Source: Escherichia phage BF15. From it: a stretch of 64,000 nt of DNA. The stretch lies in sequence record MW822007.1; one strand, 5' to 3'. The stretch's first letter is position 1. Every line of letters begins with the position of its first letter. Shown piece by piece: positions 25,896-27,694 of this stretch. The notes under the pieces are model-generated. The model did not search any database and was not told where the DNA came from. It worked only from the letters and a program-made list of their open reading frames with translations. The position numbers were made by a program, and so were the translations under genes.

Positions 25896-25914
<19 letters not shown>

Positions 25915-26384
25915 TCAGTGATAAAGCTATTTAAATTTTGGGTATATTTCTTTTCATCATAAATCTTTTGCTGTCTGCGTAAACGCCATGGCATTTCAAT
26001 GAACATACGCCATATTCCTGATAATACTGCTGCTGTAAAAATATTAACAAGTATAGTTAAAAGAATCCAATCTCCTATTCTGTCCATTGGATTTTTTATA
26101 AAAAAGTAAAATACGAATGATGATATAGGAAGACTAATGATATACCACAGAAGAACCTTTTTATCTGTGAACCAATCAGCGTTCGTTAACTTAGCGCGAC
26201 CATTATGAATACACACGAATTTATCGTCTGTTATAGTAGATGGCTTAACTGGTTGATATCCCATTCTAAACTCCCTAATCAACAAATTTTTCATATCTTC
26301 GGAACAGCCATTCCAGTCAACTCTATCAACTGAAATGCCATCGTCCCCATCATCTAAATCATACCAACGAGTTTTTAAAATCAT
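25896..26384 (-). CDS. membrane protein, member of ECRK-tail family
   Basis: two C-terminal TM helices; ends ...[10 protein letters not shown]. Confidence 0.5.
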
Positions 26385-26743
26385 TTGATTTTCCTACAAT
26401 CACTCACAAACTCTTCCATTGATTCTTTTTCAATATAAGACATGTAGTTGTTATATTCTTTTAATTGTATTTTGTAATCCTTTTTTCTTTGCCAATTTAT
26501 TTTAAAATTATCATAATGAAAAAATAGCATGGTACCAAAGAATGAAAATAATGAAATCGCTATAGTATAACGAAGTTCGCTCCAAACCTCTGTTATAATT
26601 GCTGAACTATCGACGTTTAAAATAAAACAGTCAATCATTAGTCCAATAAGACTACCCGCAAGAGCTGCAAATACTGATACGGCAAGAATTAATAGTGCCT
26701 CAGGAAACGAATATTTGACTTTATTTAGTTTTGGCTTTTGCAT
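26381..26743 (-). CDS. small membrane protein, member of ECRK-tail family
   Basis: two TM helices; ends ...EFVSDCRKIK. Confidence 0.5.
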   Translation of the reverse strand: MQKPKLNKVKYSFPEALLILAVSVFAALAGSLIGLMIDCFILNVDSSAIITEVWSELRYTIAISLFSFFGTMLFFHYDNFKINWQRKKDYKIQLKEYNNYMSYIEKESMEEFVSDCRKIK

Positions 26744-27138
26744 CGTGATTCCTTAACAAATTTCATAATTTCGTTAAATTCATACATATCTAGTTTAAGC
26801 TGGTGTTCCTTTTTAATCTTTTTACACTGAGCTTTCCATTCACGTACGCGTTTACGATAATGTCTTCCTTGATACCAGTATCCTACCCAATTTACAGGTA
26901 CCAATAAAAATGGAACTACTAATGGAAGAATTAACGTTGCTCCAAATATTACGCCAGATTCAATATCTGTCATAACGTCTATAACCATTCCAGCAATCAG
27001 TAGAATTACAAATGATACAGCTACCACAGGACCCATTAATACATCGGTAGAAATTATCTGGCGCTTTAGTTCATACTTCAAAGGTTTACTTGGAAGGTAT
27101 AGTGATGGCTTTGACATATTCTCTACATTCCTTAACAA
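26725..27138 (-). CDS. small membrane protein, member of ECRK-tail family
   Basis: two TM helices; ends ...KFVKESRCKSQN; N-terminus overlaps upstream ORF. Confidence 0.45.
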   Translation of the reverse strand: MLRNVENMSKPSLYLPSKPLKYELKRQIISTDVLMGPVVAVSFVILLIAGMVIDVMTDIESGVIFGATLILPLVVPFLLVPVNWVGYWYQGRHYRKRVREWKAQCKKIKKEHQLKLDMYEFNEIMKFVKESRCKSQN

Positions 27139-27694
27139 ATTTTTCTAGTAATAAATCGCTTTCAAAATTAGGATTTTTCACGAATTTATCAAAAAGATCA
27201 TCAATAATAGTCAAAATATTCTTTTTACTAAGAATACGCTTATTTTCATATTCCGTTTCAGAGTCAACTATAAGAGTAAAGAAATATTTCTTTCCCTGAA
27301 ATTTTACCGTAGTATCAATATAAAATAAATTTGACTTTTGTAAATTACGTTTAAACCATGCGTCACTTAAACTATAAATGCCAAGATAATCATAATCGTC
27401 GTTTAAATAACAAACTGTCCATTCAGGAGAAATGAAATCAGTAAATTCAACATCAAAATCACATGTCAATGAATGAATTGATTCAATACTGTTAATAAGT
27501 ATTCCAGGACGTATTAAAGACTTTTTACCTCTATAAAATCTTCCAGAAAGACTTTCGTCAGTTTCATACGAAGACCCCCAATAGTAATTACGTCCTTCTG
27601 CCATACGTTTAAGAGCATTCAGTAATTGGTCTGGAACATCAACCTGTCTTTGGAACTCTTCAAACATTGAATTGAAATCATTTTGCATTCTCAT
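27086..27694 (-). CDS. hypothetical protein sharing the KFVKECR tail motif
   Basis: 202 aa, no TM; C-terminus ...EKFVKECREYVK. Confidence 0.45.
   Translation of the reverse strand: MRMQNDFNSMFEEFQRQVDVPDQLLNALKRMAEGRNYYWGSSYETDESLSGRFYRGKKSLIRPGILINSIESIHSLTCDFDVEFTDFISPEWTVCYLNDDYDYLGIYSLSDAWFKRNLQKSNLFYIDTTVKFQGKKYFFTLIVDSETEYENKRILSKKNILTIIDDLFDKFVKNPNFESDLLLEKFVKECREYVKAITIPSK

Follow-up and report, generated by a model that had tools for sequence, protein, structure and literature searches.

A conserved C-terminal peptide shared by small membrane and soluble proteins encoded beside a probable PspA/IM30 relative in T4-like phages

A 64,000-nucleotide stretch of DNA from Escherichia phage BF15 (sequence record MW822007.1; hereafter 'the window') carries four consecutive, partly overlapping minus-strand genes whose protein products end in similar peptides. 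The source phage is a Tequatrovirus, and hundreds of genomes of this genus match the 3-kb region holding these genes at 93-96% identity. Conserved gene order in the annotated records of T2 and T4 identifies the genes as e.5, e.4, e.3 and e.2. The shared C-terminal peptide, which we call the tail, is real and non-random, and it is conserved at the level of its amino acids. The conserved gene directly upstream, e.6, probably encodes a divergent homologue of PspA/IM30 proteins of the ESCRT-III superfamily. We hypothesize that the tail is a cytoplasmic docking or bundling helix for a common partner, most likely e.6, a proposal that we consider about evenly balanced between being right and being wrong. 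A first-pass annotation of the window had noted the four tailed genes, and their translations agree with that observation, which is thus confirmed; its interpretation as a diversifying, envelope-associated family of tandemly duplicated membrane proteins is partly supported. The picture that emerges is wider, in that the motif recurs in about 26 families from many T4-like genera and lies beside what appears from sequence comparison to be a PspA/IM30 homologue.

The pattern F[IV].[ED][CS]R has five matches in the six-frame translation of the window, and four of them are the C-termini of e.5, e.4, e.3 and e.2. To follow the tail more widely, e.6 was used as an anchor for the retrieval of 34 viral-contig loci, and GenBank loci from Mosig-, Dhaka-, Gapriver-, Jiaoda-, Ceceduo-, Pseudoteven- and Bragavirus were added; the comparison covers 46 related loci, in which tails of the form [LI]-E-x-F-[IV]-x-x-C-[RK] recur. 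Compared by BLAST without their tails, the 147 distinct tail-bearing proteins form approximately 26 clusters, comprising 18 families of membrane proteins with two transmembrane (TM) helices and eight families of soluble proteins. These families occur in Tequatro-, Mosig-, Dhaka-, Gapriver- and Jiaodavirus as well as in more distant phages. Each genome examined has at least two to three tail-bearing genes, usually one encoding a soluble protein together with others encoding membrane proteins.

The cluster-weighted consensus of the tail reads [L/I](-3) E(-2) x F(0) I/V(+1) K E C(+4) R/K(+5) K/G K. Position -3 is hydrophobic in 75% and position -2 is Glu in 46%; because both positions lie outside the search pattern, their conservation provides independent evidence for the motif. 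At +3, only about 40% of families have Glu. Among genes of the full-length loci, the Cys-type tail is found in 88 of 317 located downstream of e.6 versus none of 275 located upstream (Fisher p = 2e-27). No other annotated gene with a Cys-type tail was found in the window or in T4 positions 1-50 kb, the scan of T4 not extending to 105-169 kb.

More divergent forms of the tail also accompany e.6 homologues. For example, YIETCRK, YIEQCRE and YIESKR occur beside the e.6 homologue of Proteus phage Pm5461, FIHSCKK occurs beside that of RB43, and SIIRRARGK and SIIKQARSR are carried by two genes directly 3' of a 25%-identical e.6 homologue in locus L048. The distance from the tail to the true C-terminus is 0-15 residues, and reaches 31 in RB43. 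Two loose matches in the window, YVSLCRK at 13 residues from the end of a 193-amino-acid open reading frame (ORF; 18097-18678, minus strand) and FINDSR at 23 residues from the end of a 105-amino-acid ORF around position 387 (minus strand), are probably unrelated to the tail family.

Conservation of the tail is pronounced among the soluble e.5-type proteins. An alignment of 11 such proteins, which are only 15-20% identical to each other, retains N98, F186, C190 and R191 as its sole invariant columns, and the tail is the best-conserved eight-residue window of this family. The Cys gives way to S, I, V, M or A in families of the e.4 type, which fits a role in hydrophobic packing rather than as a metal ligand or disulfide partner; a metal-binding or disulfide role was considered and is unlikely given these substitutions.

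The first-pass annotation had cautioned that part of this conservation may come from the ribosome-binding site of each downstream gene lying inside the coding sequence. Shine-Dalgarno (SD)-like hexamers do lie within the tail codons of all four genes, but this overlap fails as a sufficient cause of the motif. If the tail were a nucleotide-level by-product of translational coupling, then a purine-rich SD together with A/U-rich codons would merely happen to read F-V-K-E-C-R-K where each tail overlaps the ribosome-binding site and start codon of the following gene. Besides the hexamer in every tail of the window, such an explanation could draw on the 16 identical nucleotides, AAATTTGTTAAGGAAT, that the e.5/e.4 and e.4/e.3 junctions have in common (within 27086-27150 and 26700-26772, minus strand). 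However, the SD falls on the K-E codons in e.5 and e.4 versus the R-K codons in e.3 and e.2, and the codons for the invariant F, I/V and C are not SD-like. The corresponding junctions in Mosigvirus are less alike, and therefore the 16-nucleotide identity in the window may reflect local gene conversion.

A survey of codon usage in approximately 120 distinct tail instances across the related loci bears further on this explanation. Phe is encoded by TTT in 81 cases and TTC in 35, Cys by TGT in 46 and TGC in 45, and Arg by all six of its codons (AGA 43, AGG 20, CGT 26, CGC 11, CGA 8 and CGG 4), such that 49 of 112 Arg codons are CGN. The F codon is located anywhere from 17 to 100 nucleotides from the next start, and the tails FIAKCR, FIRMCR and FLEYCR are retained ahead of intergenic gaps of 28-64 nucleotides that have their own SD. 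Moreover, 34 of the 38 tightly coupled minus-strand junctions in the window lack the motif. The variety of synonymous codons, the variable distance and the motif-free coupled junctions indicate that the motif is selected as protein. Together with the gaps, they rule out the SD overlap as the only explanation and make a by-product of coupling highly improbable. Hence, the overlap between SD sequences and tail codons is real but incidental.

Hydrophobicity analysis supports the first-pass assignment of two TM helices to each of e.4, e.3 and e.2, and of none to e.5. The helices of e.4 span approximately residues 27-49 and 54-77, while e.2 has a 76-residue N-terminal cytoplasmic part followed by helices at approximately residues 77-97 and 104-128. 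Counts of Lys plus Arg in the N-terminal, loop and C-terminal segments are 5/0/15 for e.4, 4/0/10 for e.3 and 12/1/9 for e.2. By the positive-inside rule, this distribution implies a hairpin with both termini inside and a short acidic periplasmic loop, and therefore cytoplasmic tails, as had been proposed. In contrast, the helices had also been described as lying just before the tail, and this is not so: a basic cytoplasmic segment of 34-53 residues extends from the second TM helix to the protein end.

A structural model of e.3 from AlphaFold (mean predicted local distance difference test score, pLDDT, of 87.8) suggests what this segment might look like. Helices are predicted at residues 13-42 (the first TM helix), 46-52 and, without interruption, 58-119, with the tail at the tip. 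The second TM helix is thus predicted to continue into the cytoplasm for about 45 further helical residues. This cytoplasmic helix has a hydrophobic seam with 3-4 spacing that ends in M109-F112-C116-I119, which would make the tail its last two heptads. A search of the PDB with the e.3 model using Foldseek yielded nothing significant, with ExbB/TolQ as the best match at E 0.64.

The tail has a negative mean hydrophobicity (-0.2 to -0.5), which suggests helix-helix packing rather than membrane insertion. A moderate hydrophobic moment of 0.3-0.64 and the basic residues after the Cys might nonetheless be taken to mean that the tail binds membranes as an amphipathic helix or acts as a C-terminal degron. 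We find neither of these functions at all convincing, since the hydrophobic stripe is narrow (four residues, about 100 degrees wide) and the mean hydrophobicity makes membrane binding unlikely, while the variable distance to the C-terminus noted above is atypical for C-terminal degrons. A prohead-protease site like that of the capsid-targeting sequence, in which I-x-E is followed by cleavage, was also considered and rejected, as the required Glu at +3 is absent from most families and membrane proteins are not packaged.

The gene upstream of the tailed block offers a candidate partner. Proteins encoded by e.6 are 54-99% identical across genera in which e.5 proteins are 15-20% identical. An exhaustive phmmer search of 1.84 billion representatives recovered the e.6 family as 36 clusters (at 50% identity), all of about 200 amino acids, and the family appears restricted to T4-like phages. 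Two remote relatives that match the e.6 protein of the window over their full length, P0105 (E 9e-10) and P0111 (E 2e-7), score 35.1 and 39.0 bits against the Pfam family PF04012 (PspA_IM30), whose gathering score is 33.9, and two more members of the e.6 family match PspA_IM30 with E values of about 1e-4. When a 28-member e.6 profile was compared with the PDB, the top eight matches were all Vipp1 or PspA chains (E 7.5e-5 to 2e-3; including 8qfv, 9eom, 8qhv, 7o3w and 6zvr), with colinear alignment of positions 1-140 to 1-141. A profile of five close sequences had no match in the PDB, and the link to PspA emerged only with the wider family. No paper reporting a PspA homologue in T4 was found in the literature. 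If e.6 is a relative of PspA and Vipp1, a lytic phage would bring its own scaffold for stabilizing or remodelling membranes, with a bearing on how the host membrane stays energized until lysis and on resistance to membrane-directed abortive infection.

We propose that the tail makes up the final two heptads of an alpha-helix in the cytoplasm, which in the membrane proteins would be a rigid extension, about 45 residues long, of the second TM helix. Its stripe of L/I, F, I/V and C would then serve as a docking or bundling surface through which fast-diversifying proteins, both membrane-bound and soluble, reach a single shared partner. This partner might most plausibly be e.6, acting as a PspA/Vipp1-like scaffold in the way that PspA-type proteins are anchored by LiaI or by PspB and PspC; alternatively, the tails might bundle with one another and so tether e.5 to the membrane. 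In order of preference, we infer that the candidate partners are e.6, the tails themselves and a conserved host protein. A further step, which we regard as unlikely though worth stating, is that T4-like phages possess their own Psp/ESCRT-III-like module, in which e.6 would be recruited or regulated at the inner membrane by interchangeable, rapidly diversifying adaptors (e.5-e.2 and their numerous counterparts in other genera) that act through the tail. Were this true, the variable bodies of the adaptors could tune the module to membrane insults such as injection pores, to holin accumulation during lysis inhibition, or to membrane-targeting defences.

The second candidate on this list deserves separate consideration. 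If the tails bind one another, the helices of e.5, e.4, e.3 and e.2 would make a hetero-oligomeric bundle that holds e.5 at the membrane, with no external partner being involved. Translational coupling would favour co-assembly in fixed proportions, and the usual presence of one soluble protein together with membrane proteins in the same genome is consistent with such a bundle. Likewise, the continuous hydrophobic seam of e.3, on a 62-residue helix that stands isolated in the monomer model, implies that this helix has partners. However, phages differ widely in how many tail-bearing genes they have (three to seven) and of what kind, and e.2 is lost from some phages in which the others stay, as would be expected of interchangeable adaptors more than of a fixed complex. 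We therefore consider mutual binding of the tails a tentative possibility.

Several findings weigh against docking to e.6 and against its assignment as a PspA relative. The match between the e.6 profile and the PDB has high composition bias, and the e.6 protein of the window alone reaches no Pfam threshold and gives no match to an approximate sequence of E. coli PspA. The model of e.5 is weak (pLDDT 63.8, with residues 181-196 predicted as helix), and a fold search yielded no convincing structural neighbour. In the e.3 and e.4 families, the tail does not rank first in conservation. Gene order is largely shared among T4-like genomes, and thus the synteny of e.6 with the tail-bearing genes says little about a connection in function; in addition, a hairpin separates e.6 from e.5. 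Finally, a CRISPRi-ART study lists T4 e.2-e.6 as 'UNKNOWN' and 'Not Fit' (PMC11879866), their knock-down having no fitness effect in a laboratory host (PMC11879866, supplementary file 15), and any role of these genes would therefore be conditional.

Whether the tail might simply have been inherited depends on how the four proteins are related. PHROGs places them in four separate families, namely 2607 for e.5 (E 1e-108), 2604 for e.4 (E 8e-71), 2330 for e.3 (E 7.5e-57) and 2203 for e.2 (E 9e-79), all of which are annotated as of unknown function or merely as 'membrane protein'. Comparison of e.3 with e.4 by hhalign gives a colinear full-length alignment with a probability of 91.4% (E 9e-7), which falls to 30.2% over 87 columns upon removal of the tail, compared with a maximum of 24.7% for reversed decoys. 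The alignment of e.2 with e.3 is confined to 14 tail columns (52%), and e.2 without its tail has no similarity to e.3 or e.4 by hhalign (probability of at most 0.6%). When all membrane clusters are compared without their tails, nine pairs reach a probability of at least 50% versus none among decoys. These comparisons suggest that the tail-bearing membrane proteins are loosely connected by remote homology and that e.3 and e.4 are probably diverged tandem paralogues. The tandem duplication proposed in the first-pass annotation thus probably applies to e.3 and e.4 but is not supported for the other two genes, as e.2 and the soluble proteins, e.5 included, appear to have the tail alone in common at a detectable level.

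The tail could accordingly be read as an inherited remnant of tandem duplication that is kept for helix capping or folding and that has no shared partner. The remote homology among the membrane clusters is consistent with this reading, as are the similar N-termini of e.4 and e.3 (MSKPSL and MQKPKL, encoded from start regions ATGTCAAAGCCATCACTA and ATGCAAAAGCCAAAACTA, respectively). Conservation within the e.4 family peaks at the N-terminal SLYLPSKP, whose codons are shared, in another frame, with the end of e.5 because of the 32-nucleotide overlap. However, the tail is also carried by soluble proteins of 92-273 amino acids whose bodies are unrelated to those of the membrane proteins, and its standing as the most conserved element of the strongly diverged e.5 family is hard to explain by generic capping. 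On balance, an inherited remnant strikes us as improbable.

The tail-coding DNA has a secondary consequence, in that its repetition supplies short homology for the gain and loss of gene cassettes. The gene e.2 is absent from T2 (locus L001) and from locus L010, where e.3 ends in GATTGCAGGAAATTAAAATGA and is fused directly to nudE. The last 15 nucleotides of e.3 in these two phages are of the e.2 type, AGGAAATTAAAATGA, encoding CRKLK, while in phages that carry e.2 the e.3 gene ends in AGGAAAAT[C/T]AAATGA, encoding CRKIK. This hybrid end indicates that loss (or gain) of the e.2 cassette took place through a crossover inside the tail-coding repeat, which is about 20 nucleotides long, and T2 thus provides a clean case of cassette loss through a coding micro-repeat. 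Separately, e.2 of the T4 reference (locus L004, 2860-3168) is frameshifted and encodes 102 rather than 162 amino acids, with the old end FITECRKLK still readable downstream.

These observations raise the possibility that selection on the tail-coding DNA acts chiefly on its use as a recombination linker, a short boundary for shuffling cassettes between co-infecting T4-like phages, with the peptide being secondary. The position of the T2/L010 crossover inside the repeat agrees with such a role, as does the 16-nucleotide identity of the two upstream junctions. However, the DNA of the motif diverges between genera at synonymous sites while the amino acids remain constant, a homology of 15-20 nucleotides is short for a selected recombination site, and recombination at repeats is an expected side effect of their presence. 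Selection as a linker therefore seems to us quite unlikely.

The arrangement of the locus is summarized in Table 1. Successive overlaps of 32, 19, 4 and 4 nucleotides join e.5/e.4, e.4/e.3, e.3/e.2 and e.2/nudE, with stop and start codons overlapping as ATGA in the last two cases, such that e.5 to nudE form one translationally coupled block. For e.4, the TTG at 27138 is only the start of the longest ORF, and the ATG at 27117 was used. Sites resembling T4 early-type promoters precede e.8, e.7 and e.6, and no promoter-like site was found between e.6 and e.5; the e.5-e.2 block is therefore presumably read through from the e.6 promoter. We infer that e.5-e.2 are early or middle accessory genes that are coupled and lie downstream of e.6. 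The hairpin after e.6 is marked as a putative stem-loop in T4 record L13089. It lacks a T-run on the coding strand and is followed 8 nucleotides further by GGAG ahead of e.5, and it is more suggestive of an element for RNA stability or processing than of a terminator.

Table 1. Features of the e.6-e region, with positions given in the window.
Feature	Position	Strand	Description
e.6	28329..27736	-	197 amino acids; conserved gene upstream of e.5
Hairpin	27730..27715	-	GC-rich, AGGGGCTTCGGCCCCT; directly 3' of e.6, before e.5
e.5	27694..27086	-	202 amino acids, soluble; C-terminus ...LEKFVKECREYVKAITIPSK; tail LEKFVKECR at 27148..27122
SD-like AAGGAA for e.4	27128..27133	-	Within e.5 codons K-E
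e.4	27117..26725	-	130 amino acids from ATG; C-terminus ...IMKFVKESRCKSQN; tail IMKFVKESR at 26769..26743
SD-like AAGGAA for e.3	26749..26754	-	Within e.4 codons K-E, 5 nucleotides ahead of ATG
e.3	26743..26381	-	120 amino acids; C-terminus ...MEEFVSDCRKIK; tail MEEFVSDCR at 26419..26393
SD-like AGGAAA for e.2	26390..26395	-	Within e.3 codons R-K
e.2	26384..25896	-	162 amino acids; tail LNSFITECR at 25934..25908
SD-like AGGAAA for nudE	25905..25910	-	Within e.2 codons R-K
nudE (Nudix hydrolase)	25899..25459	-	Pfam NUDIX, E 3e-13; last gene of the coupled block
e (lysozyme)	25421..24933	-	Next after nudE
Eight tRNA genes	29.6-30.9 kb		

Database searches provide little guidance on what these proteins do. 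Scans of e.2-e.6 against Pfam, NCBIfam and PADLOC gave no match above threshold, and PADLOC gave no match of e.2-e.5 to known families for anti-phage defence or superinfection exclusion. The e.5 protein has a precomputed assignment to Pfam PF26876. Homologue searches with e.3 and e.5 returned close relatives only, and a profile search with e.5 brought in Klebsiella-phage and Merlin-type members. Public names for e.3 and e.4 are noisy ('sulfurtransferase', 'DNA primase', 'head outer capsid protein' and 'site-specific RNA endonuclease'), and e.6 is publicly named as hypothetical or, wrongly, as a 'host specificity protein'; profile searches support none of the names given to these three proteins. 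A literature search found no paper on the function of e.2-e.6.

A second tandem family with a conserved extreme C-terminus, including a terminal Cys, was seen in Mosig-, Dhaka-, Gapriver- and more distant T4-like phages, and none was seen in the window. It consists of three to six small soluble proteins (65-105 amino acids) encoded in tandem after the tail-bearing genes, and its members end in W[VIL]SSSxxC or WxxSSC directly before the stop codon (for example, GAWVSSSAMC, GGWVSSSSEC, TSWVSSSYEC and KIWYPSSC). The arrays are located at 3357-3662 in locus L005, 3351-4596 in L006, 3691-4957 in L007 and about 6000-7700 in L015-L043.

T4 is the best-studied virulent phage, yet its e.2-e.6 genes have no assigned function. 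The presence of one peptide on approximately 26 otherwise unrelated families offers an experimental handle on a whole block of such genes, as one such peptide could serve as bait for a shared partner.

Our proposal can be compared with several known systems. PspA with PspB and PspC in E. coli and Yersinia, and LiaH with LiaI in Bacillus, are envelope-stress modules in which small membrane proteins (PspB and PspC, or LiaI) hold PspA-type proteins at the membrane. Similarly, e.6, as a candidate PspA/IM30-type protein, adjoins small inner-membrane proteins whose cytoplasmic helices could anchor or regulate it, the phage proteins having two TM helices, both termini inside and basic cytoplasmic tails. 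In contrast to the Psp and Lia partners, e.2-e.5 have no detectable homology to PspB, PspC or LiaI (Pfam, NCBIfam and PADLOC at E values up to 1 gave only sub-threshold noise), and the phage module would belong to a virulent phage and involve candidate partners that are numerous, fast-evolving and in some cases soluble. To our knowledge, a short shared C-terminal motif has not been described for Psp or Lia partners.

The internal proteins of T4, whose genes lie only a few positions from the tail-bearing ones, carry an N-terminal capsid-targeting sequence, MKTYQEFIAE, on hypervariable cargo, and this sequence is cleaved by the prohead protease. As with the tail, a short conserved helical peptide is thus borne by unrelated, rapidly diversifying accessory proteins encoded in the same hyperplastic region, and there is a local resemblance between the two peptides in E-F-I-x-E. 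However, the tail is C-terminal rather than N-terminal and cleaved, resides on membrane proteins that cannot be packaged, and has Glu at +3 in a minority of families. The tail core E-F-I-x-[ED/K] also resembles both the conserved N-terminal amphipathic helix of e.6, KK[IL]VEFIR[TS]K (28270-28329, minus strand), and the capsid-targeting leader of an internal-protein-like ORF in the window (24951..24655, minus strand), and these likenesses may be coincidental.

The MIM motifs of ESCRT-III proteins are C-terminal amphipathic helices that bind MIT domains, and the tail resembles them as a short C-terminal amphipathic helix that ends in a basic residue and is a candidate docking element. The two differ in consensus and in location, as MIM motifs are part of the ESCRT-III subunit whereas the tail is carried by the neighbours of e.6 and not by e.6 itself. 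Lastly, in the PeSL-type cassettes of T4-like hyperplastic regions, boundaries made of a promoter and a stem-loop mediate modular shuffling. The tail-coding repeats are likewise short conserved sequences at gene boundaries with a footprint of recombination, but they are coding, carry neither promoter nor stem-loop, and are conserved as amino acids.

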